A stretch of 64,000 nucleotides of DNA from Dehalococcoidia bacterium (GTDB lineage: Bacteria > Chloroflexota > Dehalococcoidia > GIF9 > UBA5629): NCBI GenBank assembly GCA_050011565.1, contig JBEKIW010000003.1, positions 160,001 through 224,000 of the forward strand, written 5' to 3'. The first letter of the stretch is position 1, and each line of letters begins with the position of its first letter. The notes under the pieces were generated by a model. It had not been told where the DNA came from, searched no databases, and worked only from the letters and a program-made list of their open reading frames with translations. Positions 51,436 to 63,056 of this stretch are shown piece by piece. Made by a program: the position numbers and the translations under genes.

Positions 51436-53244
51436 TTATGCTGGGAACTTGTATTTGTAGACAATCGTGTCTCCTGCCTGGGGGTAGACGATATAGCCGT
51501 CCAGGCCGAAGAAGTAGATTACATCTGGCACCAGGTTAAGAAGCCTTTTGAGCACGCCGGCTGCCGACTCGCCGGCACCGACTTCGAGCCTGGGGTACAA
51601 ACTGGTAATCAAGCTACTCCGGGACTTATAATCCAGCGTGCCCCCTATCGCCTGTACTACCTTTTCCATTAACTGGTAGCAGGTTAAATCATCGGAGCTA
51701 ATATTCCACTCCGCGGGCTTGTTGAACTGGTAACAAGAAAGCAACCCCCAGGCGTCCACACAGTGAATGATAAAGCTGGCAACATTGGGGTCTCTTTTGT
51801 ACTCCATAGCCTCTACGAAATACCTGGCTGCCTCTGAGAGCTGGTCACCTGAGGTAGTCTTATAACCGACAAAAAGATTAACCCGGGCGCCGCGCTTCAT
51901 AACGGCCAATGAACCTGAGCCCGGGCTGTTATAAGTGCCCCTGGAATTATCCAGCTCCACCACCAGCTCAGAGGGCTGGCTAGGATCTACCGCCTCAATT
52001 ATCCTGGCTATTTTGGAGACCGGGATGGTAATTTTGTCGCCGGCGCCACTTCCTGGGGTGGGGGGACTCCAGGCGCCAGGGCAAAGGGCGCGCCAGACCT
52101 CGGTCGGCTGCGTTGCCCAGATGTATTCTCCGTTGGGGTCGGCGGCTAAAGCCATGCCTCGAGAAGCTAAAGTATCAACGAAGCTGGCTTTATTCCAGTT
52201 GTAGTCGTAGAAATCCGTGCCCGGCTTAAGCCTGAATATCCAGGGCTGATTTTGGCGGGCTAGAGATAATAGGGGGCGTGAGCAAGATGTAGCCGGCTTT
52301 AACAGGTAGGGACCTGAGACATCCAGCGTCTCACCGGCCAGGGCTTCAACTACCGCCTGATGCCTCTCCCAGTACGTGGAAGCAGTCCGTGGCTCCCAGG
52401 GACCGAAGGGCTGCAACCTGCGAAAGCCTACAGGCCAGCCGACCTCGAACTGCCTTAACCTCACCTGGGCGGCAACATCTACCCTGGCCCTGCCTAAACC
52501 TATTTTGGCATCCGTGGCCCAGGTGCCGGCTGAAACCTTATAGCCGTCTCCGTAAACCATGCGGACCACAGAAATATAGCTGCCTTCCTGGACCAGGGCG
52601 ATGATGTTCCAGTCGCCATCATAGTACATGGCTAAATCTTCAATCTCCCGGTCTCCCGAGCGCTGGCCGAGGCCGGTGCTCCAGCTCCCCCCTGTCCTCT
52701 TTTGAATATACAGACTGGTGGGGTCATTGATATCAGAAGCGTGGACGATAGCACAATCGCCATTGGGCTTGTAGGCTATGGCGGCACCTCTTTCGCAGGG
52801 GCGGGCATTCATCATAGCCGTCCAGCTCCCCCAGGTGGCACCGTAGTCCGATGACTGCCGGCGATAGAGATTAGCGGCATCCATGGAGGCCACCATGACC
52901 TCTGCGCCTTGAGAGGCAATGGCGACCCTGGCATAGGCAGGGACACCGCCGAAGGAGCTACCCCACTGGGAAAAACCTGAGCTCGGGCCCGGGCTGGTGA
53001 CACGGGAGAGAAAGAGACTGGTGCCATCTTTGCGGACCCGAATCAATGAGCCGTCACCGGGAATGGTCAAACCGTGGGAATCATTGACCTCACCTCCCTG
53101 ATAAAAGCGCTGCCAGCCCAAGGCTTCCCACTGAAGGCTCGAGGACTGCTGGGGATGGCCGTAAGCCTGCACCTCGAGCTTGACCAGCGGCTTCCTGGTG
53201 GGCTTCCTCTGTTCTTCGAGCAGCGCGTCAGTTATGCTTCGCAT
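51436..53244 (-). CDS. Phage tail/baseplate-like protein (602 aa; true start MRSITDALL)
   Basis: AAGGA RBS before ATG 53244; upstream part of the 941-aa ORF is the IS antisense strand. Confidence 0.6.
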   Translation of the reverse strand: MRSITDALLEEQRKPTRKPLVKLEVQAYGHPQQSSSLQWEALGWQRFYQGGEVNDSHGLTIPGDGSLIRVRKDGTSLFLSRVTSPGPSSGFSQWGSSFGGVPAYARVAIASQGAEVMVASMDAANLYRRQSSDYGATWGSWTAMMNARPCERGAAIAYKPNGDCAIVHASDINDPTSLYIQKRTGGSWSTGLGQRSGDREIEDLAMYYDGDWNIIALVQEGSYISVVRMVYGDGYKVSAGTWATDAKIGLGRARVDVAAQVRLRQFEVGWPVGFRRLQPFGPWEPRTASTYWERHQAVVEALAGETLDVSGPYLLKPATSCSRPLLSLARQNQPWIFRLKPGTDFYDYNWNKASFVDTLASRGMALAADPNGEYIWATQPTEVWRALCPGAWSPPTPGSGAGDKITIPVSKIARIIEAVDPSQPSELVVELDNSRGTYNSPGSGSLAVMKRGARVNLFVGYKTTSGDQLSEAARYFVEAMEYKRDPNVASFIIHCVDAWGLLSCYQFNKPAEWNISSDDLTCYQLMEKVVQAIGGTLDYKSRSSLITSLYPRLEVGAGESAAGVLKRLLNLVPDVIYFFGLDGYIVYPQAGDTIVYKYKFPA

Positions 53245-53311
53245 GATAAAATCCTTAGGGTAGATTGGAGCAGACGCTCCGGGGTACCCCTTTATTAAAG
53301 GTAAGTATCCC

Positions 53312-53340
53312 TTGACAATATAAGCTCCTTGTGTTATGAT
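53312..53340 (+). promoter_or_regulatory. Sigma70-type transposase promoter inside the left IR
   Basis: TTGACA-17-TATGAT with extended TG. Confidence 0.75.
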
Positions 53341-53364
53341 GGTATTATAACAAGGAGAAAAGAA

Positions 53365-54321
53365 ATGACAGCCGTAAATAGAACTAACCCAATAAAGGCA
53401 AAATCTTCTGACTCTCAATATACACTCGTAGAGTTTATGGAGACATTCCCAACCGATGCCGCTTGTCTCGAATGGCTTTGGAAACGACGCTTTTCGAAAG
53501 ATGGCGAACATGCCCATTGCCCGAAGTGCAATAAGGTACGCTCTTTTAAGCGGTATCAATCGCATCAACTGAAAGTCTCTTGGACTTGCGTCGCTTGTGG
53601 TTATCATATTCACCCGTTGGCTAGAACTATCTTCGAGAAGTCCTCTACTTCCCTGCGATTGTGGTTCTATGCCATGTACCTGATGGTGAGCACTAAATGC
53701 GGTATTTCCGCCAAACAACTGGAGCGAGAACTTGGGGTTACATACAAAACAGCTTGGCGTATGGCCTATTTGATAAGGAAATACCTTATGGAACAAACAG
53801 GCGAATTGCTTGGCAGGAATGAGGGTGTTGAACTGGACGAGACATTTATTGGCGGGAAAGCCCATAATATGCACAAGGCCAAACGTGCCCGTCTTGGCGG
53901 ACGTGGAACTGCCGGTAAGGTTCCTGTATTTGGTGCAGTCGAACGGCATGGTAGAGTTGTGGCAGTCACTGTCCCTAACGTAGATAGAGTTACACTCCTG
54001 CCACAAGTCATAAGGCATGTTATTCCAGCGTCCACCGTTTATACCGACGAAATGGGTGCTTATGACCCGCTGACCGAGAATGGATATAACCATAAAAAAA
54101 TCAACCACATGGAAAAAGTCTATGTGAGCGGGGATGTCCATACAAACACAATTGAGGGCTTCTGGTCGCTCGTAAAGCGAGGCATTGGGGGTGTCTATCA
54201 CGCAGTGTCCGCTAAACATCTTCAAGGCTACCTGAATGAATATGCTTGGCGGTATAATCACCGCGACGATGAGAGGGCGCAGTTTGAGACGTTACTTCTT
54301 CGGGCGGCGGCTGGGAGCTAG
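53365..54321 (+). CDS. IS1595-family DDE transposase
   Basis: Zn ribbon CPKC...CVAC, HTH GISAKQLERELGVTYKTAW, VELDETF, YTDE, HTNTIEGFW, YLNEYAWRYN. Confidence 0.95.
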   Translation: MTAVNRTNPIKAKSSDSQYTLVEFMETFPTDAACLEWLWKRRFSKDGEHAHCPKCNKVRSFKRYQSHQLKVSWTCVACGYHIHPLARTIFEKSSTSLRLWFYAMYLMVSTKCGISAKQLERELGVTYKTAWRMAYLIRKYLMEQTGELLGRNEGVELDETFIGGKAHNMHKAKRARLGGRGTAGKVPVFGAVERHGRVVAVTVPNVDRVTLLPQVIRHVIPASTVYTDEMGAYDPLTENGYNHKKINHMEKVYVSGDVHTNTIEGFWSLVKRGIGGVYHAVSAKHLQGYLNEYAWRYNHRDDERAQFETLLLRAAAGS

Positions 54322-54420
54322 TGGTTTGATTGGCTTTGCCGCCTTTTCGAGTACGTCTAACACGTCCTTGCGTTTCGGGATTGGTATCTCGAAATCTTTC
54401 GGGGTTTTTTGTGTCTTCAT
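54292..54420 (-). CDS. Small basic 42-aa ORF overlapping the transposase 3' end
   Basis: GGAAGG RBS, upstream TATACT; MKTQKTPKDFEIPIPKRKDVLDVLEKAAK. Confidence 0.5.
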   Translation of the reverse strand: MKTQKTPKDFEIPIPKRKDVLDVLEKAAKPIKPLAPSRRPKK

Positions 54421-54454
54421 TTTCTTGCCTTCCATAGTTAGAGTATAGCATATC

Positions 54455-55318
54455 ATGAACGACTGGTGGCTCAAGTTCCAACGGGCTGAGAAGCACATGG
54501 TAGACATCAATCAAGAAGCCATGAGGTACGCAAGCAGCAATCCTTACAGTTTTACTCGTATTCGGTTGCCTAACAGCAAGAATGAAATCAGGGGACGCTT
54601 CCATATCACTGAGCAACCTAATCCCATGATTGCTGTTATGCTCGGTGATTTCATACATAACTTGCGAAGTGCACTTGATTACATCGTTGTTGCCTGTGTT
54701 CCCAAACAACATCGGAAGCACGCGAGTTTCCCAATCCTGTATCAAGACATCTTCGCCAAGGGTAAGGACGGACAATTCGTGGTCAATGATGCCCAATTGC
54801 GGGATAACTTTGAGACCGCCACCAAAGGGCTTCATCCGAGAGCTAAAGCATTCATCATATCTCTGCAACCTTATCAAGCGGTGATTCTTGGGCTTCCGCC
54901 AGATAATTCTCTCGGAGTTCTCAACCGCCTCGAAAACGCAGACAAGCACCGTCAACTTATTACCGTTGGTTGTGGCGGGCAAGAAGGTATTCTTAGTTTT
55001 ACTGTACGTGGTTTCACTGAATCTATTACATATCACCAAAGGTTGGGCGTCGGTACTCAATTTCTCAAAGATGATACAGTAATCCCGTTCGTTCTTCATC
55101 CTGATTTCAATAGAATTCGCCATCCCGATGGGTCGTTTGTCCAGCCATCCGATATGGAGATGCATCTCAGCACTACCGCTAAGATATTGGTCAAGGTACC
55201 CAGGATAGGAGGGAATCAGTCTGCCTATAACATGTTGATTGATGACATCATATCTACCTCCCTCTTTGACGTGAACGGCATTCTCAAGCGATTGGAATTC
55301 TTTGTTTGCAATACCTAA
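54455..55318 (+). CDS. IS passenger protein, putative HEPN-like
   Basis: GDFIHNLRSALDY and LNRLENADKHR motifs. Confidence 0.6.
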   Translation: MNDWWLKFQRAEKHMVDINQEAMRYASSNPYSFTRIRLPNSKNEIRGRFHITEQPNPMIAVMLGDFIHNLRSALDYIVVACVPKQHRKHASFPILYQDIFAKGKDGQFVVNDAQLRDNFETATKGLHPRAKAFIISLQPYQAVILGLPPDNSLGVLNRLENADKHRQLITVGCGGQEGILSFTVRGFTESITYHQRLGVGTQFLKDDTVIPFVLHPDFNRIRHPDGSFVQPSDMEMHLSTTAKILVKVPRIGGNQSAYNMLIDDIISTSLFDVNGILKRLEFFVCNT

Positions 55319-55373
55319 TCGTTTATTCAATTTTCCCCCTTTATATCGAGATGGGATAGGTACCTTTATTAAA

Positions 55374-55427
55374 TGTAGCCTCGACCTTTCAAGGTCGAGG
55401 TCGCGGGGTTAAAACCCCGCGGCTGCA
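55374..55427. repeat. GTAG-type REP-like doublet
   Basis: TGTAGCCTCGACCTT..AAGGTCGAGG plus CGCGGGGTT..AACCCCGCG; relatives at 56744, 59089, 63167. Confidence 0.7.
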
Positions 55428-55492
55428 TGCTTAACAAACTCTCCGCTATTCGCAGGCTGGACGTCGCATAAGAAATTTTTCTAAATTTTTTC

Positions 55493-55541
55493 AAAATAGT
55501 ACTATTTTCCCCTTGAAATTGGCCTGGCTTACTGTTATTAT
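55493..55541 (+). promoter_or_regulatory. 16-bp palindrome plus sigma70 promoter of the small TM gene
   Basis: AAAATAGTACTATTTT; TTGAAA-17-TATTAT with TG. Confidence 0.6.
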
Positions 55542-55570
55542 TCGTATACTCCTTGTGGGGGAGGAGTAAG

Positions 55571-55696
55571 ATGCTTAATAGAAATCTGATAATGGGCCTC
55601 ATTACCCTCGGAGTCTTGCTGGTGATATTGGTATATATAGCCATTACGCCATCCCCCTTTGGTAATTTACCTTCGATCATAATCCCGCAAGGCTAA
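55571..55696 (+). CDS. 41-aa single-TM small protein (moron-like); absent from the ORF track
   Basis: GAGGAG RBS; MLNRNLIMGLITLGVLLVILVYIAITPSPFGNLPSIIIPQG. Confidence 0.6.
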   Translation: MLNRNLIMGLITLGVLLVILVYIAITPSPFGNLPSIIIPQG

Positions 55697-55789
55697 AGCC
55701 CCATCTACACACCTGCTGCGGGAGCACTTGCTCCCGGCTATCCCCATCAGTCTCTATTAATTTCAATCGGTCTCCATCAATCTCTAACA

Positions 55790-56512
55790 TCAATTGAAAC
55801 TATTCGATAGCAGCTGCCCTGCCAGAGTTCCCACTCCATACAGCGTCCTGTTGAACGGCGCCAGCCTGGACTGCCAGTCGATTTTGGAACCGGCCAGCTC
55901 AGACAGGCTGTTGGCAGCCCTGACGGTAGTGTTGAAGTCCCGGTTAAAGACATAGTACTCGGGACTGCGGCCGCACTCTCCTTTCTTTTTCTCGGTCTGC
56001 TCCTTAATCCAGTCCTTGGCATCTACCGCCAGGTCGACCAGGTAATTCCAGTAGTCCACGGCCTGTGAGATGTGCTGGCAATCCGTCACCGAGCCTTTAT
56101 CCCGCGCCTTATAGAATATGGTGCACGGGTTCACCTCGGTATAGGTCTCCTTGACGGTAGCCATAACGCTCTCGTGGAACGCCTTGGGGTCAAAGGCGTG
56201 AATTCCAAGAGTTACTTGAGTTCCTTGAGTTTCTGGTGTTCCTTGAGTTTCTTGAGCTAAAGGGGCCGGCGCGCCGTTAGAAACAGTAGCCACCTGTGCC
56301 TCGGCGGTTTTGGTTTTCTCCTTCTCGGCGTCAATTTTGCCCTGAGTCAGTATATAGAAGACTCCGGCTGCGGCTGCTGCCAGGGATGGGACCATGTCCA
56401 TAAAGGTCTTCTGCGCCTCCGGCTCCTGGACGAAAAGCGGTATGATTGTGGCCAGCATAGTAATAATGAAGGCGCTGTACTTCTTTTTGCCATCTAAAAA
56501 CTTTTGTATCAT
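55790..56512 (-). CDS. Phage-associated protein with holin-like two-TM N-terminus
   Basis: LDGKKKY followed by two hydrophobic segments; AAGGAGG RBS. Confidence 0.55.
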   Translation of the reverse strand: MIQKFLDGKKKYSAFIITMLATIIPLFVQEPEAQKTFMDMVPSLAAAAAGVFYILTQGKIDAEKEKTKTAEAQVATVSNGAPAPLAQETQGTPETQGTQVTLGIHAFDPKAFHESVMATVKETYTEVNPCTIFYKARDKGSVTDCQHISQAVDYWNYLVDLAVDAKDWIKEQTEKKKGECGRSPEYYVFNRDFNTTVRAANSLSELAGSKIDWQSRLAPFNRTLYGVGTLAGQLLSNSFN

Positions 56513-56526
56513 TAATAATGTACCTC

Positions 56527-56775
56527 CTTTTATTTGGTTGCTGGGGGATGGGCATGAGCTCTGCTCATCCCTTTTTGTTTGGTTGTTGCGGGTGGGGTAT
56601 GAGCTTTAGCTCATCCCTTCATTTATTTATTATGATTACAGGATATTCCCTGTGGGTAGATTGGAGCATCCGCTCCAGGCATACCCTTTTTATTAAATGT
56701 CGCCTTTGTCTGCCGTTATATGTAGCCTTTGTCTGCCGTTATATGTAGCCTCGACCTTAAAAGGTCGAGGCTACA
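56527..56775. repeat. Cluster of tandem and palindromic repeats
   Basis: Two ATGAGC..GCTCAT units, a GGAGC..GCTCC hairpin, a 23-bp tandem, and a palindrome with perfect 15-bp arms at 56744-56775. Confidence 0.7.
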
Positions 56776-58789: not shown

Positions 58790-59192
58790 AGGCAAGGGAT
58801 AACCCTTGTGCTTTGGACTATCTATATGGAAAGGAGGTGATGAGATTGGCAGGAGGCCGAAGCTGGCAGACACCGGCTGAAGCAAGCGAAGTAGTGTCCT
58901 GACTCCGGGACATAAAGCCAAACCCAGAAAAATTTGCTGGGTTATGTGTGGAGTAGCCCGTACAGGCGGGCTGTAAAAATACCTTCAAAAAGTTAATACT
59001 TTCCCCGAAAGGGGTCCCTAAAACCGGAGGCGGGGGTCGAATTTCCGCCGAAGGTCTCCGAAACAAATCCCGTACATGATTTTCTTTATGTAGCCCTGAG
59101 GCTTCAGCCTCGGGTGCACCCGACCTTAAAAGGTCGGGGCTACATTGGGAAAGAGAATAAGTTTTCGGAGTTTAGAAATATTAGGAGGTATA
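58790..59192 (+). promoter_or_regulatory. Long structured 5' leader of the S-layer-like gene, with upstream SD/uORF
   Basis: At least five hairpins including CCCC-GAAA-GGGG; AAGGAGGTGA at 58831-58840; TTG uORF 58846-58902. Confidence 0.5.
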
Positions 59193-62100
59193 ATGAAAAC
59201 GAAATATCCTAAACTATTCGGTCTCCTGGCGATGCTGATGCTGGTAGCCAGCTTCGTGGTGCCGACCAGTTTGGTCAACCCATCAGCAGTTCAGGCTGAC
59301 CCCGGCATGTGCAAATGGGATAACTTGGCGGAACCGGGATCAGCGCCCGTACTGAACAACATCACTCCCAATGAAATACTCGACTACTCTATCGCCAGTG
59401 ACGGGACCAACATGAGCGCCATAGTACGTATACCCAGCACTGCATTGGGAGGGGTAAACGTACTGATGAATTCACCGGCGTATACGGGTCTGTTCTGGTC
59501 ACTCGCCAAATACCCCGATCTGGCCGGGACGCCTGGCTTTTACGTGGGAGCCGTCCCACGCATGCTGTACCAGGTAATCTATGCCCCGGACGACCCCAAC
59601 TTCTTCGCTGTGACCAGCGATGGTTCAGCTGCTGCAGACTTATTCAAAGGCCCTAAAGAGGTGTGGGTCACGCGGAACAATGGCGGTACCTGGGAAAACG
59701 CCCAACTGCAGGGCAAACTGACAGCAGTAGGTGAGACCATCCGCTGCATCGACGTCTCAGTCGATTACGGCGGCAGGCGCGATATCGTCGTCGGTACGGT
59801 AAATGGTGCCGGCGCCGGCAAGCTCATAGTAGTTAAGTCAACCGGCTTCAGCGGCTGGGTGACACAGGTTACCACTGCTCTGGGCACTGTCGATTTCTTT
59901 GCCGCTAAGTTCTCGCCGAGCTATCCCAGCGATGGTTCGCTAGCGGTCGTCTTCGCTGACCTTACCAAGACTTATTACAACGTCGCCCTGCGCGACCTCG
60001 ATGCTAACACGATTATTAGCTGGGCATTCACCACGCCGGGCGTGGAAGTTGTAGACCCCACTAAGGCCGGCACGTCACCCGGTTATCTCGAGCTGAACAA
60101 GGCCGACCTTGAGCTGCCCTCCGACTTCTCGGGTCAGGCGGCATCACTGCGCCGCGCCTACATCAGCCTCGACACCTATAACTGTGGCGCAGCTAAGGCT
60201 GCCTGGGACGGTATCGTCCGCATAGACGACACTACCGTCTATGTCCTCATGGACACCTCAGGCATGCCCGACAAGTCCATTTACAGCATCGCCTACTTCG
60301 GCACCTATGCCTCAGGCAAGCTGCTGGCCGGCGAGCGAATGGGCTATCCGTGTGATGCAACCGTGCCCACGTGGTTTACCGATTCACCGACAACCTGCCC
60401 CGTCCCCTGCTGGTATCCGTGCCTTAAATGTCCTACCGGCGCTGCCTGCGGTGCTGGTGCCTGCAACTGCCCTGGCCTTTTCAACTGCGCACCAGGGTCC
60501 AAGACTGGCGTCGGTGCTGCTCTCGTTGCGTGGAGGCCTAACGGCCAGCTGGCATTCGTCGGCACCGGCGGGCTAGCCGCTGCTATGGGCGCAACCTGGT
60601 GGAGGTGCTTGTCGACTGGTGCCGTAACACCATGCGACGAGTCTGCCTTTGCCATCAGCCGCAACAACGGTGAGACCTGGAACGAGGTTGCACTCATCGA
60701 TACTAAGATAACCAAGTTTACCGATGTAGCGCCCTCGGCTGACTGCCAGACCGTTTACCTGGCTTCGGTCAACACAGGCTGCACGATCACTACTGGCGGG
60801 TGCATCTTTAAGCAACAAATACAATGTGACAACTCTACACTACCTTTACCTACTTTTAAGGACCTCGGGCAATTAGGTGGAGGTTACCCAAATTCGGCTA
60901 ATTGCACCGGCTGCGGTTATAATACCTATACCATCCTGTCGATGGCTACTGGCGGGTGGAACCCGGTTACCTGCAAGTGCGATTACACCATTAGTGGTAA
61001 CATCACATTTGACATGCCCTGTGCTCCGGGCTGCTGGACGGTCGTCCCGTTCTCCACTTCGGGCTCAATGCCCTGTGCCACATCGACAAATATCACTGTC
61101 ACCTTACCCTGCCAAGCCAGTATCTGCTGCCCTACTACTATTACTGAGGGTTGCTGCGGCTTCGACAGCGTGTGGCGCACCAGCAGCAATGCTGACGTGG
61201 TGGCACCTATTGCCAATCTGCCCGTAGGCACGATCTGGGAGAGGGTATGGACCCACGTAACTGCAGCAAATTGCAATTTACCACAGTCAAACGTGGCGCT
61301 GTTGAGGTTGGTGCCTTATTGCGCCGACCCGACCGGCGAAATAGTCGGCTGGGGCGTTTACGGTAAAAATGTAGCCTTCTGGTCGCCTGACTTCGGTGAT
61401 TACTGGGCTCCGATAACGGTGCGGAATACTATCCAAGACTTCACCTTTGAGTCCAGGACAATGCTGTACTTCCTCAGCCCCACCGGTCTGGTTCAGAAGA
61501 TGCCGTTCACCGGCACCTCCTGGTCAACCTCTCTGCCTAGCTATGATTCAAGTACAAACCCGGCTCATAGCATCGCCGCTCAGCCAACAGGCAAAGTCCT
61601 GGTTGGCAAGGGTGACGGAGGCGCGTATGCCGGTGCATTCAGCTTTAACATGGACACCGATAACCCGACGTTCGGGTCATGGTTAACAGCTGGACCCATA
61701 CTGGGTGGCGCTGTACATGTCGCCTTCGATCCTAACTTCGATGACAACAGCATCATCTATCTCGACCAAGAAGGTCCTGGTGGCTCGGTGTATCGAAACA
61801 ACCCCACATCGCAGCTAAGATGGACAGATATGGACATGCTGGCTGCTGCTAACGGCGCTGTTGGCTGCCTCCCTCTCAACCCTGCCTCAGGCTTTAGCGG
61901 TATATTTCTCGCCTACACCGGCCAAGCTCTGTACGCATCCAGCCAAGTTCCAGGCTGGGGTGTCTTCCGCATCATCGATGACGGCACCGGCAAATACGGT
62001 CCGCTCTCCGGCTTCCCCAAGCCGGGCATCGCCTGGGATCAGCTAACCGGAGTAGGACTTCCCGTCGATGTGGTATTCACAGCTCAGCCTACTGCACTCA

Positions 62101-63056
62101 AGGCATGCGGCTGCTGCACCCTGGACACCGATACCACGCTGTATGCCATTGACGACAGGCCTTACGGAGGGCCCCTTACGAATGTTGGCAAGATCTGGAG
62201 GTTCACCGACTGCCTGGCCAAGAGAGGCCCAAGCCTGGTTACCGAGGATAAGGTTCTCATTGGCTGCGACCCGGTATCCGGCAGGGCTGGTGAAGTCAAC
62301 CTGTGCTGGGAGCAACTCTGCGTGGCTAACGGGTACGATATCGAAGTCGCTAAGGATGCCAACTTCACCATTAGAGTTTTAGACTGGATGGACGAAGGAT
62401 GTACCATTAGCCCATTCGAGCCCGCTGATGTGACCACTCCTTGCGCCTATGTACCGGCTGGCGGCATAGTCTCGGGCAGCTCCGCGATTGGTAGCACCTA
62501 TTTCTACACGGGCAACCTCGAATGCGGACACACGTACTACTTCCGTGTCAGGGCTCGCGAGTGCGCCACTGGCGCGTTTGCCCGCAGCCCGTGGTCTGAG
62601 GTCAGAAGCTTCACCGTCAAGGCTGGCTACCCAGTTGTCAGCCAGTACCCTGGCCTGCAACTTCTGGCACCAGCCAACGGCAGCCTGGGCATCCCGGTCA
62701 AGTCAGTATCCTTCTCGTGGTCACCGTTTGGGGATGCCACGAAGTACAAGTTCGTACTGGCTAAGGACTCGAACATGACCCAGGTCGTCAAAGAGGCTGA
62801 GACTACCAACACCGCCTACGGGTACGATGGTACGCTGGACTACAGCACCAACTACTTCTGGCGAGTAATGGCTACCGAACCAGCTCCGAGCGATTGGTCA
62901 GCTACCTTCAGCTTCCAGACGGAGCCGCAACCTGCGCCTCCATCGGAAAAAGCACCAGTAGCTCCAACCCCAATTTGGGTTTGGGTTGTTATCGCTATCG
63001 GCGCTATTCTCGTCATCGTCACCCTGGTACTCATCTTCAAGACGCGCCGGGTGTGA
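59193..63056 (+). CDS. S-layer/cell-wall-like protein, Cys-rich (1287 aa)
   Basis: AGGAGG RBS, signal peptide, BNR/Asp-box motifs (TRNNGGTW, SRNNGETW, SPDFGDYW), FN3-like domains, TPIWVWVVIAIGAILVIV...KTRRV anchor. Confidence 0.85.
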   Translation: MKTKYPKLFGLLAMLMLVASFVVPTSLVNPSAVQADPGMCKWDNLAEPGSAPVLNNITPNEILDYSIASDGTNMSAIVRIPSTALGGVNVLMNSPAYTGLFWSLAKYPDLAGTPGFYVGAVPRMLYQVIYAPDDPNFFAVTSDGSAAADLFKGPKEVWVTRNNGGTWENAQLQGKLTAVGETIRCIDVSVDYGGRRDIVVGTVNGAGAGKLIVVKSTGFSGWVTQVTTALGTVDFFAAKFSPSYPSDGSLAVVFADLTKTYYNVALRDLDANTIISWAFTTPGVEVVDPTKAGTSPGYLELNKADLELPSDFSGQAASLRRAYISLDTYNCGAAKAAWDGIVRIDDTTVYVLMDTSGMPDKSIYSIAYFGTYASGKLLAGERMGYPCDATVPTWFTDSPTTCPVPCWYPCLKCPTGAACGAGACNCPGLFNCAPGSKTGVGAALVAWRPNGQLAFVGTGGLAAAMGATWWRCLSTGAVTPCDESAFAISRNNGETWNEVALIDTKITKFTDVAPSADCQTVYLASVNTGCTITTGGCIFKQQIQCDNSTLPLPTFKDLGQLGGGYPNSANCTGCGYNTYTILSMATGGWNPVTCKCDYTISGNITFDMPCAPGCWTVVPFSTSGSMPCATSTNITVTLPCQASICCPTTITEGCCGFDSVWRTSSNADVVAPIANLPVGTIWERVWTHVTAANCNLPQSNVALLRLVPYCADPTGEIVGWGVYGKNVAFWSPDFGDYWAPITVRNTIQDFTFESRTMLYFLSPTGLVQKMPFTGTSWSTSLPSYDSSTNPAHSIAAQPTGKVLVGKGDGGAYAGAFSFNMDTDNPTFGSWLTAGPILGGAVHVAFDPNFDDNSIIYLDQEGPGGSVYRNNPTSQLRWTDMDMLAAANGAVGCLPLNPASGFSGIFLAYTGQALYASSQVPGWGVFRIIDDGTGKYGPLSGFPKPGIAWDQLTGVGLPVDVVFTAQPTALKACGCCTLDTDTTLYAIDDRPYGGPLTNVGKIWRFTDCLAKRGPSLVTEDKVLIGCDPVSGRAGEVNLCWEQLCVANGYDIEVAKDANFTIRVLDWMDEGCTISPFEPADVTTPCAYVPAGGIVSGSSAIGSTYFYTGNLECGHTYYFRVRARECATGAFARSPWSEVRSFTVKAGYPVVSQYPGLQLLAPANGSLGIPVKSVSFSWSPFGDATKYKFVLAKDSNMTQVVKEAETTNTAYGYDGTLDYSTNYFWRVMATEPAPSDWSATFSFQTEPQPAPPSEKAPVAPTPIWVWVVIAIGAILVIVTLVLIFKTRRV

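Follow-up and report, generated by a model that had tools for sequence, protein, structure and literature searches.

An insertion sequence in the window (the whole 64,000-nt stretch of Dehalococcoidia DNA that was analysed) carries two protein genes on the plus strand, and long open frames run in register along the strand opposite both. Why should the reverse strand of such an element be readable as well? A sequence-only reading had proposed that selection keeps it translatable. The element and its genes are the following.

53300-55364, about 2 kb: IS1595-family element with a plus-strand transposase gene and ORF2, inverted ends and a TTTATTAAA target repeat
53291..53299 (left copy) and 55365-55373 (right copy): target-site duplication TTTATTAAA, found by sequence inspection
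53300..53340, plus strand: left inverted repeat, beginning GGTAAGTATCCCTTGACAATATAAG, with the predicted transposase promoter
55340..55364, minus strand: right inverted repeat, GGTACCTATCCCATCTCGATATAAA in the inward reading
53365-54321, plus strand: transposase gene, 318 aa, IS1595 family
54455-55318, plus strand: ORF2, 287 aa, conserved second gene of this IS group, possibly HEPN-like
54292..54420, minus strand: small gene, 42 aa plus stop, conserved, between the two plus-strand genes

The transposase is of the ISXO2/IS1595 DDE type, as judged by its matches to PF12762 (E = 1.8e-45; 155 bits, cut-off 27) and NF033547 (E = 4.8e-62; 210 bits, cut-off 75). Zinc-ribbon matches at residues 47-82 were all sub-threshold; the pattern CPKC...CVAC was seen in the translation. 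The inverted repeats are flanked by a target duplication, TTTATTAA(A) in the window and 8 bp in the relatives, whose ends read GGyAACTATCCC... between 8-bp direct repeats (e.g. L090, L045, L040, L002, L154 and L116). A transposase promoter, TTGACA-17-TATGAT, was predicted at 53312-53340 inside the left inverted repeat, with 11 of 12 promoter positions matched. The left ends of the relatives conserve the TTGAC -35 and an extended -10; this -35 is absent from the right inverted repeat of the window element and usually from the right ends of the relatives, and no minus-strand promoter was visible there. Rfam returned nothing at E <= 0.1 across 53000-55800, and a look-up of RNA runs listed none for this sequence. 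We place the element in a widespread three-gene IS1595-family group, with a transposase, ORF2 and a minus-strand small gene. Subgroups of IS1595 carry additional genes in the ISfinder classification. A literature search covering few subscription journals found no IS1595 element with a conserved opposite-strand small gene, ORF2 or stop-free antisense frames, nor antisense ORFs in IS1595 or ambigrammatic transposons.

ORF2 had been taken for an unrelated passenger. It proved to be a conserved component of the element: in 57 of the 161 sources a homologue follows the transposase gene on the plus strand, and mapped ends place ORF2 within the inverted repeats. The databases hold 258 relatives. A class-wide genome search detected ORF2 in 8 of 401 genomes, the window's own included, and no relative was found in the plasmid collection. 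The AlphaFold2 model of ORF2 is confident (mean pLDDT 90.7). ORF2 has an invariant R158...D163-K164-H165-R166; across 42 sequences neither R158 nor H165 varies, and the two stand in R-L-E-N-A-D-K-H-R at the R-x(4-6)-H spacing that defines the HEPN motif. In structural comparison the model matched the HEPN toxins 5yep_B (Z 7.2, rmsd 3.6, 120 residues aligned), 7ae2_A (Z 7.2) and 8xdj_A (Z 6.4); its HEPN matches, including 2hsb_A and 1wol_A, ranked among unrelated helical bundles with equal Z. Foldseek gave nothing for the model at E <= 0.001, Pfam, NCBIfam, PHROGs and PADLOC contained no match to ORF2, PDB sequence profiles returned nothing meaningful, and the ESM Atlas returned only unnamed clusters. 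ORF2 thus possibly adopts a HEPN-like fold, as far as the model and the motif indicate.

Two long frames cover the opposite strand.

54212..55330, minus strand: ORF2 antisense ORF, 372 aa, TTG start at 55330, in register with ORF2
53300..54261, minus strand: transposase antisense ORF, in codon register with the transposase gene, first start GTG 54261, conserved ATG at 54219, stop-free to the left end

All ORFs named in the sequence-only reading were present, including minus 55330-54212 (372 aa) and minus 54261-51436 (941 aa, GTG start), the form that the transposase antisense ORF takes in the window copy. These two share 50 nt. Both are codon-for-codon antisense to the plus-strand genes, as had been described, and each extends over nearly the whole forward ORF, one of the defining features of ambigrammatic coding in narnaviruses. 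The ORF2 antisense ORF continues past ORF2 through the small-gene region, in a different frame, to TAG 54214-54212. The 941-aa ORF crosses the left end and the target repeat in frame into the next minus-strand ORF (ATG 53244); this ORF, a putative tail gene in the sequence-only reading, had no Pfam or PHROG match. This run-on into a downstream gene holds for the window copy and does not hold as a family property; among 22 open relatives with mapped ends, the transposase antisense frame exits the element without a stop in 16.

Antisense stops in this register arise from TTA, CTA and TCA. With 25 Leu and 17 Ser codons, the transposase gene uses TTA once (54292) and CTA and TCA never; ORF2, with 25 Leu and 16 Ser codons, uses none of them. 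The reported avoidance therefore stood; the hand count that came with it (47 Leu, 32 Ser) did not, the actual totals being 50 and 33. As had also been noted, the single TTA is the TAA stop of the 42-aa minus-strand ORF (54420-54292). From each gene's own A3 usage, 11.7 such codons were expected in the transposase gene and 9.4 in ORF2, against 1 and 0 observed; with host codon usage as the null, P(<=1) was 1.8e-3 for the transposase gene and P(0) was 1.9e-4 for ORF2. None of 995 long ORFs of the host genome lacks these codons, and 3 have at most one (mean 0.030 per codon). Other A-ending codons are freely used, at 20-25% of their families in these two genes. These results confirmed the stop-free antisense frames in the window.

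We then compared 160 related loci from several phyla. Of 161 transposase rows, 4 were incomplete and dropped, leaving 157; 61 ORF2 matches were reduced to 55, because 4 lay on the minus strand and 2 were truncated at a contig end. Inner stop counts of the transposase gene omit the last 35 codons, because the stop of the small gene falls there. The three-codon depletion recurs: no codon-aligned antisense stop precedes the last 35 codons in 79 of 157 complete transposase genes, and the ORF2 antisense is stop-free in 42 of 55 genes, with at most one stop in 52. Flanking genes of the same loci are stop-free in 82 of 374 cases, and below 56% GC in 0 of 38. Fisher's tests against the flanking genes gave p = 2e-6 for low-GC transposase genes, 5e-8 for low-GC ORF2 and 2e-11 for ORF2 at GC >= 0.56. 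The A3-based null overpredicts stops in ordinary genes (observed/expected 0.64 overall, 0.54 above 62% GC), and single high-GC relatives are weak evidence, because 76 of 288 high-GC flanking genes are also stop-free. The depletion is present at 43-50% GC and over more than 100 diverged copies. Low-GC transposase genes had 0 stops against 11.3 (L004), 8.7 (L094) and 7.0 (L088) expected; for low-GC ORF2 genes the figures were 0 against 12.3 (L094), 12.1 (L087) and 8.6 (L162). The depletion thus exceeds what codon usage predicts and is kept in diverged relatives.

The depletion could instead be a by-product of sense codon usage, arising from donor bias, TA-dinucleotide avoidance, or tRNAs that are scarce or attacked by the element's own, possibly HEPN-like protein. 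The tRNAs that decode TTA, CTA and TCA all carry a wobble U, a shared property that would suit this explanation, as would the shortfall and the stop-free high-GC cases among ordinary flanking genes. Against it, the low-GC open elements have CTA at 0.00 of 347 CTN codons, TCA at 0.01 of 227 TCN codons and TTA:TTG at 1:88, but use GTA, CCA, ACA, GCA, GGA and CGA at 17-23% each, and the low-GC flanking genes are never stop-free. Sister elements on the tree are all-or-none, their frames being clean or else interrupted about as often as expected; L082 contains 13 stops where its neighbours L001 and L081 contain 0, and the transposase antisense of L087 and L013 contains 14 and 11 stops. One ORF2 relative, L163, is closed (7 stops against 10.2 expected).

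The small gene bears on the same question. An alignment of 35 members showed the motif Q-x-T-P-K-G-x-E-I-P-V-P...L-K-K-x-A-K-P...P-K-K, in which Q, T, I, P and P are invariant; each member starts at a Met of its own, in many cases behind a Shine-Dalgarno site. No match was found in Pfam, NCBIfam, PADLOC, PHROG or PDB, where sequence profiles gave nothing meaningful. Across the family, TTA, CTA and TCA make up 56 of 141 Leu and Ser codons. The overlap with the transposase stop dictates 35 of the 56, which leaves 21 as free choices. A general avoidance of these codons or their tRNAs by the element is excluded, because its own small gene uses them freely. The within-gene null, host genes, flanking-gene calibration and closed sister elements together rule out a codon-usage artefact; the by-product explanation is largely refuted, and we consider it very improbable. 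The comparative evidence shows that selection removes TTA, CTA and TCA from both plus-strand genes.

Two candidate translation signals were found on the minus strand.

55335..55339, minus strand: Shine-Dalgarno-like GGGGG, 4 nt upstream of TTG 55330, just inside the right inverted repeat
54212..54219, minus strand: ATG/TAG junction ATGTTTAG, in which ATG 54219-54217 of the transposase antisense is overlapped by TAG 54214-54212 of the ORF2 antisense

The TTG at 55330 is preceded by AAAGGGGGAAAA on the minus strand. In 55 relatives, anti-Shine-Dalgarno pairing was stronger at the first in-frame start of the ORF2 antisense than at 671 internal in-frame starts; dG was <= -6 for 49% of the first starts and for 12% of the internal ones (Mann-Whitney p = 2e-9). 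Only the ORF2 antisense ORF has a conserved ribosome-binding site and start of its own. At the transposase antisense start no separate Shine-Dalgarno site is evident, and translation from it would rely on coupling. The predicted ATGnnTAG overlap is a junction of the translational-coupling type. In the window's clade, the His codon at the junction is CAT in 19 of 25 cases (background 0.35), and the Ala, Ser or Thr codon before it has T at its third position in 16 of 19 (background 0.21). The putative junction is thus maintained through synonymous choices in this clade, and fixing synonymous positions for an antisense ATG and TAG is inexplicable by sense codon usage. Two further possibilities were set aside. 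Stop read-through or recoding at the conserved stop ahead of the transposase antisense frame is unlikely, as TAA, TAG and TGA were all found there; a -1 frameshift at A-AAA-AAC, noticed by eye in the ORF2 antisense frame near the small-gene start, would lead into a frame that stops within about 15 codons.

The open frames might also encode proteins. Divergence of the transposase gene decreased from codon position 3 to 1 to 2, which indicated that the plus frame is its primary coding frame. For ORF2, the minus strand as the true coding strand was rejected, because divergence was greater at position 3 than at position 1 and the plus-strand product folds confidently. Transposase dN/dS values were 0.014/0.35 for L002-L003 and 0.034/0.69 for L001-L081, more distant pairs were saturated, and four-fold-site identity was equal in open and closed genes. 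Because transposase synonymous sites evolve freely, what is maintained opposite this gene is the absence of stops and not the sequence of an antisense protein; stop-free codon-aligned frames recur in relatives in which these sites are saturated.

We judge it unlikely that either antisense ORF, or both, gives rise to a functional protein in a true dual-coding arrangement, and the saturated, equally conserved synonymous sites of open and closed transposase genes argue that the transposase antisense protein is not under selection. The 372-aa ORF2 antisense product is the better candidate, because its ORF opens with a separate ribosome-binding site and start, which are conserved at the right end. 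Its frame also stays open where the transposase antisense has been lost (L082, L087, L016-L018, L090 and L059), and public data contain 39 such proteins as predictions of gene callers. When the same pairs were compared, ORF2 showed less synonymous divergence than the transposase gene (0.37 vs 2.15, 0.86 vs 1.8 and 0.54 vs 0.68; three of three finite close pairs), and sense and antisense amino acid identities of ORF2 in L094-L081 were nearly equal (0.74 and 0.68). This could reflect protein-level constraint on the antisense product; the low dS in the three pairs could equally reflect exchange of ORF2 modules between elements. At long range, four-fold-site identity of ORF2 was only 0.38 against 0.29 expected. 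The AlphaFold2 model of the antisense product had a mean pLDDT of 55.5 (five models, 36 to 55; 196 of 372 residues below 50), against 90.7 for ORF2 itself, and the antisense products matched no family or domain in Pfam, NCBIfam, PHROGs or PADLOC.

The element seems instead to be built for two-way translation, because the reverse strands of both protein genes are stop-free, also in many distant relatives. The sequence comparisons establish the stop avoidance, its conservation and the predicted translation signals. That selection keeps the reverse strand translatable, as had been suggested, is supported by the recurrence, the clean-or-expected pattern of stops, the Shine-Dalgarno site with its start and the start/stop overlap; the earlier interpretation as a whole is partly supported. 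Our best reading is that the whole length of the minus strand is kept open to translation, and we see the chances of this as evenly balanced. Ribosomes would enter at the Shine-Dalgarno site and start just inside the right inverted repeat and would first read the ORF that is codon-for-codon antisense to ORF2. This frame would terminate at the stop overlapping an ATG, at which the transposase antisense frame would start, usually leaving through the left end. Following RNA polymerase, the ribosomes would protect the antisense transcript from Rho-dependent termination and decay; the purpose of the translatable strand is probably to keep ribosomes on and so block either process. We infer by analogy with the proposal for ambigrammatic narnaviruses that translation itself matters. 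Transcription entering at the right end could thereby traverse the element, where it would express the embedded small gene, yield a full-length antisense RNA against the messages of both plus-strand genes, and leave the insertion non-polar for downstream host genes. In its broadest form the proposal is that the whole IS lineage evolved ambigrammatic coding: each base in the two plus-strand genes would also lie in a reverse frame open to ribosomes, with a start signal at the edge of the element and a coupled hand-over from frame to frame, and with transcription from both sides escorted by ribosomes and evading Rho for the sake of the small gene, antisense control and operon transparency. We advance this tentatively, rating it slightly short of an even prospect.

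A narrower version, the first option of the sequence-only reading on its own, is that the open frames serve mainly non-polar insertion, with host-operon transcripts translated across the element so that Rho would not terminate them before the downstream genes. The window element lies between two minus-strand ORFs, its own genes opposing both; the start signal sits at the extreme edge of the element, the left exit is mostly stop-free, and the host genome encodes Rho. The flanks are, however, only a putative operon; a GC-rich hairpin pair separates the upstream gene from the element. Where the ORF2 antisense is open and the transposase antisense closed, the element would remain polar. Lineages of this kind fit a local function on the ORF2 side better than whole-element read-through. 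The insertion-orientation bias that non-polar insertion might leave was not seen: 105 flanking genes were co-directional and 107 opposite by crude gene calls (long ORFs; above 56% GC a GC3 rule was applied), and closed relatives showed 28 against 35, with no excess of opposite orientation. Flanks shorter than 600 nt or without a called ORF had been dropped (60 left and 50 right of 161). The test is weak, because no bias is expected if both orientations are non-polar. We judge that non-polar insertion is quite unlikely to be the main purpose.

Two-way-readable coding has so far been described only for one group of RNA viruses. If the reading of ribosome-escorted, ambigrammatic coding is true, the element would be its first cellular, DNA-based counterpart and a natural device for evading Rho-dependent termination, and selection for being translated, without a conserved product, would shape a mobile element of about 2 kb across phyla. 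It would also be a second, independent ambigram, and one much more open to manipulation than that of a mosquito virus, with a laboratory bacterium, reporters and a Rho inhibitor at hand; it would offer a direct route to ask if ribosome escort of antisense and read-through transcripts is adaptive in bacteria. Annotation is affected too: gene callers choose either strand (258 ORF2 relatives against 39 antisense proteins) and overlook the conserved 42-aa gene. New parts are the three-gene IS1595 group itself, its second protein, possibly HEPN-like, and its small protein, both without described function.

Among known systems, the element shares with the IS1595 family (ISXO2-like) the transposase domain, a putative zinc-ribbon-like N-terminus, short inverted repeats and 8-bp target duplications. 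Long antisense ORFs have reportedly been noted in the older IS elements IS5 and IS903. Opposite the nylon-oligomer hydrolase genes lie 'non-stop frames', which in the nylB case are said to have been ascribed explicitly to missing TTA, CTA and TCA. In GC-rich DNA, long antisense frames arise from composition. To our knowledge, these cases are single genes or elements, mostly in GC-rich DNA, without comparative evidence of selection or conserved start signals. Like them, the element has a long open frame opposite a real gene; it differs in its 43-50% GC and its many diverged copies. The antisense overlapping genes of E. coli O157:H7 (such as laoB) likewise combine coding potential opposite an annotated gene with ribosome-binding sites (PMC5810103, PMC9927249). 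Such ORFs are short and lineage-restricted and their products are presumed functional, whereas those of the element span whole genes, tile it, and show no amino acid conservation in the transposase antisense.

The closest likeness is to the ambigrammatic narnaviruses, in which avoidance of TTA, CTA and TCA also opens an in-register reverse ORF over nearly the whole forward ORF (PMC8316113, PMC8155312). In these viruses the reverse ORF is kept by selection across relatives, as in the element; both viral segments are ambigrammatic, as are both plus-strand genes here; and the reverse product is apparently no conserved protein, translation itself being proposed to matter, a trait the element would share on the transposase side. 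PMC8316113 states that persistence of Culex narnavirus 1 requires an intact reverse ORF and proposes ribosome protection. The element, known from sequence alone, would likely avoid Rho termination or RNA decay, and the narnavirus the exposure of naked viral RNA. Unlike the narnavirus, the element bears putative bacterial translation signals on its reverse strand, a Shine-Dalgarno site and a start/stop coupling, and a genuine small gene is embedded between its two reverse ORFs. It is a bacterial DNA transposon with a DDE transposase and the narnavirus a eukaryotic RNA replicon with an RdRp, so the likeness is one of working, not of membership.

The insertion sequence spans 2065 bp (window 53300-55364), its ends are imperfect terminal inverted repeats (GGTAAGTATCCC... 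and ...GGGATAGGTACC), and the direct repeat TTTATTAAA flanks it at 53291-53299 and 55365-55373. Its plus strand carries two genes, a transposase gene and ORF2, and the element is present as one copy in the 2.0-Mb host assembly. The flanking ORFs on either side are both on the minus strand. The features of the element are as follows:

Left end, ahead of the transposase gene, plus strand: match to a near-consensus promoter, TTGACA-17-TATGAT
53365-54321, plus strand: IS1595-family transposase gene, 318 aa (PF12762, E = 1.8e-45; NF033547, E = 4.8e-62)
54219-54212, minus strand: hand-over junction ATGTTTAG, an ATG/TAG overlap
54420-54292, minus strand: small gene, 42 aa, conserved, QKTPKGxEIPVP...LKKxAKP...PKK
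54455-55318, plus strand: ORF2, 287 aa

Outside the element, two adjoining GC-rich hairpins were located at 55379-55421, separated by 6 nt from the right side of the target duplication; for the 56-nt stretch, dG is about -34 kcal/mol. Related copies were found at window 56745-56774 and 59121-59143, at 224893-224948 of contig C3 and once more on contig C1. They may represent a palindromic repeat family or a terminator set, and perhaps the target of the insertion. A 1303-aa ORF lies nearby on the plus strand (window 59145-63056).

The sequence-only reading had described two long minus-strand ORFs in codon register with the plus-strand genes. Both were present, at 55330-54212 (372 aa) and 54261-51436 (941 aa), and both were codon-for-codon opposite the genes they overlap, so that TTA, CTA and TCA in the sense genes are their stops. 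In agreement with that reading, the transposase gene, which has 25 Leu and 17 Ser codons, contained a single TTA (54292) and neither CTA nor TCA; ORF2, which has 25 Leu and 16 Ser codons, lacked all three; and A-ending codons made up 20-25% of the other codon families in both genes. From this A-ending usage, 11.7 such codons were expected in the transposase gene and 9.4 in ORF2. With host codon usage as the null, the probabilities were P(<=1) = 1.8e-3 and P(0) = 1.9e-4, respectively; among 995 long host ORFs, none had zero of these codons and three had at most one.

We then examined 160 related loci (numbered with the prefix L), fetched from genomes and metagenomes of Chloroflexota, Acidobacteriota, Actinomycetota and other phyla, with transposase identities of 48-77%. 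Codon-aligned antisense stops before the last 35 codons were absent from 79 of the 157 complete transposase genes and numbered at most one in 100, so the depletion recurs in related IS1595 transposases. On the protein tree, the state was nearly all-or-none, neighbours having either zero stops (open) or roughly the expected number (closed); for example, L082, with 13 stops, stands beside L001 and L081, with none. Closed frames were also seen in L087 (14 stops) and L013 (11 stops), and the transposase antisense frame was lost in several lineages. Low-GC elements are the informative cases: no stops were observed in L004 (44% GC), L094 and L088, against 11.3, 8.7 and 7.0 expected. These comparisons indicated that stop-free antisense reading is a property of the lineage and not an oddity of a single copy.

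The null was calibrated with 374 flanking genes of the same loci and was found to be too high for ordinary genes, with an observed/expected ratio of 0.64 overall, 0.75-0.82 below 62% GC and 0.54 above. As the null overestimates and 76 of 288 flanking genes in high-GC genomes were themselves stop-free, single high-GC relatives weigh little. Below 56% GC, stop-free genes numbered 0 of 38 among flanking genes and 11 of 16 among ORF2 genes, and 10 of 19 transposase genes below 53% GC were stop-free. At 56% GC or more, the proportions were 31/39 for ORF2 and 82/336 for flanking genes.

ORF2 had been regarded as a passenger. In 57 of 161 sources, however, a homologue (23-69% identity) followed the transposase gene on the same strand, mostly at a distance of 100-180 nt, and lay between the inverted repeats that these elements share, which are flanked by 8-bp target duplications; ORF2 is therefore a conserved component of the element. 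Its antisense frame had no stops in 42 of 55 uncut genes and at most one in 52, in total 17 stops versus 372 expected, or roughly 240 once calibrated. By these counts, openness is kept more strictly opposite ORF2 than opposite the transposase gene, and the ORF2 antisense frame was open in L082, L087, L016-L018, L090 and L059, where the transposase antisense frame was closed. The sole ORF2 relative with many antisense stops was L163 (G183:C31:1-2809; 45% GC), with 7 versus 10.2 expected, which makes it a ready-made closed reference for ORF2.

ORF2 is a real protein, and its predicted fold was confident (mean pLDDT 90.7, with 42 homologues in the alignment). The model is a helical bundle with an inserted beta domain. 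Family profile searches matched ORF2 to no protein family. Its invariant residues R158...D163-K164-H165-R166 form an R-x6-H arrangement in RLENADKHR, and structure matches to HEPN toxins reached Z 6-7, values equalled by unrelated helical bundles. The residues and these weak matches offer a HEPN-type protein, possibly an IS-borne RNase, as a lead and not as a finding. In some relatives (L016, L018, L045, L036, L071 and others), the gap between the transposase gene and ORF2 is 700-1000 nt and the elements reach 2.7 kb; these may carry an extra gene, and the usual small gene was unrecognisable in L016 and L018.

Divergence by codon position followed the order pos3 > pos1 > pos2, which identifies the plus frames as the primary coding frames. 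For the transposase, dN/dS was 0.014/0.35 for the pair L002-L003 and 0.034/0.69 for L001-L081, and more distant pairs were saturated. Four-fold-site identity exceeded the compositional expectation by an equal small margin in open and closed transposase genes. With synonymous change free and this margin equal, the transposase antisense product is free to change and only its stops are purged. An alternative is that the ORF2 antisense product is a functional protein. ORF2 dS was below the transposase dS of the same elements in all three close pairs with a finite value, which leaves room for such a product; at long range ORF2 showed little synonymous conservation, and the antisense product had a poor predicted fold (mean pLDDT 55.5; five models, 36 to 55). 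The proposal that selection keeps the reverse strand translatable agrees with the stop avoidance in both reverse frames and its maintenance across relatives.

Translation signals were found on the minus strand. The two ends of relatives differ in a consistent manner. The left ends retained a TTGAC -35 and an extended -10. At right ends, TTGAC was usually lost and replaced by CCCATCTCTG, CCCTCCACTG and the like (e.g. in L081, L004, L094 and L024), and no minus-strand promoter was visible there. Inside the right ends, an AAGGGAG- or GGGGG-type sequence precedes the start codon of the ORF2 antisense frame, and this start frequently lies just 9-12 nt past the ORF2 stop. The right end thus seems to avoid driving transcription into the element, even though a ribosome-binding site comes directly after it. 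Anti-Shine-Dalgarno pairing at the first in-frame start of 55 elements was stronger than at 671 internal in-frame starts, with dG <= -6 in 49% versus 12% (Mann-Whitney p = 2e-9).

In the clade of the window element, the ORF2 antisense frame crosses the small-gene region and ends at a TAG overlapping the ATG of the transposase antisense frame. The His codon at this junction was CAT in 19 of 25 genes (background 0.35) and the preceding Ala, Ser or Thr codon was T-ending in 16 of 19 (background 0.21), in tests that ignore shared ancestry, among sequences whose synonymous sites are saturated. Both features were gone in the closed element L087. Synonymous codon choice within the transposase gene thus holds the junction in place. 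The transposase antisense frame was said to run in frame into the next gene; it does so in the window, and this run-on is peculiar to that copy. Among 22 open elements whose ends were mapped, 16 have a transposase antisense frame that passes out through the left end before meeting any stop.

The lone TTA of the transposase gene is, as proposed, the stop of the 42-aa minus-strand ORF. Both in the window element and in at least 40 related loci, this small gene lies between the transposase gene and ORF2; it converges on the transposase gene, and the two overlap where the transposase gene ends. Many relatives, even at 60-66% GC, have kept a TTA or CTA, or a TCA at a neighbouring codon, within the last 6-19 transposase codons. 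An alignment of 35 members showed invariant Q, T, I, P and P and a basic tail, and each member had its own Met, frequently after a GGAGG-like site. Family and structure searches returned no family and no solved structure; the gene falls below the size limit of most gene callers. TTA, CTA and TCA were used freely in it, accounting for 56 of the 141 Leu and Ser codons; 35 of these were dictated by its overlap with the stop of the transposase gene, and the other 21 were free choices. Avoidance of these codons is therefore not a trait of the whole element. ORF2 and the small gene could form a toxin-antitoxin-like pair. A -1 slippery heptamer, A-AAA-AAC, occurs in the ORF2 antisense frame at the small-gene start (54400-54412, minus strand); the shifted frame closes after about 15 codons, and a -1 frameshift was rejected. 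On the plus strand, the run reads GGGGTTTTTTG and lies behind a weak hairpin flagged by a terminator scan.

Beyond the stop avoidance, its upkeep in relatives, the start signal at the edge, the coupled junction and the genuine small gene on the same strand, we propose that the minus strand would be transcribed, from outside or from a promoter not visible in the sequence, and that the transcript would be translated end to end. Escorted by ribosomes, it could escape Rho termination and decay; Rho is encoded in the host genome. One possible outcome is expression of the small gene, which is downstream of the ORF2 antisense frame; the retention of that frame in particular would then make sense. Another is full-length antisense RNA directed at the messages of the transposase and of ORF2. 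Insertion could also be non-polar; a crude test found no bias in insertion orientation (flanking genes 105 versus 107). However, several lineages without the transposase antisense frame and the lack of a visible minus-strand promoter count against ribosome escort.

Neither antisense ORFs in IS1595 elements nor ambigrammatic transposons turned up in a literature search with most subscription journals outside its coverage. Decades ago, long ORFs on the opposite strand were noted in IS5, in IS903 and antisense to nylon-hydrolase genes; to our knowledge, these were reported without comparative evidence of selection. Ambigrammatic coding, readable on both strands, has so far been described in narnaviruses, whereas the case here is a DNA transposon of bacteria whose translation signals are bacterial too.
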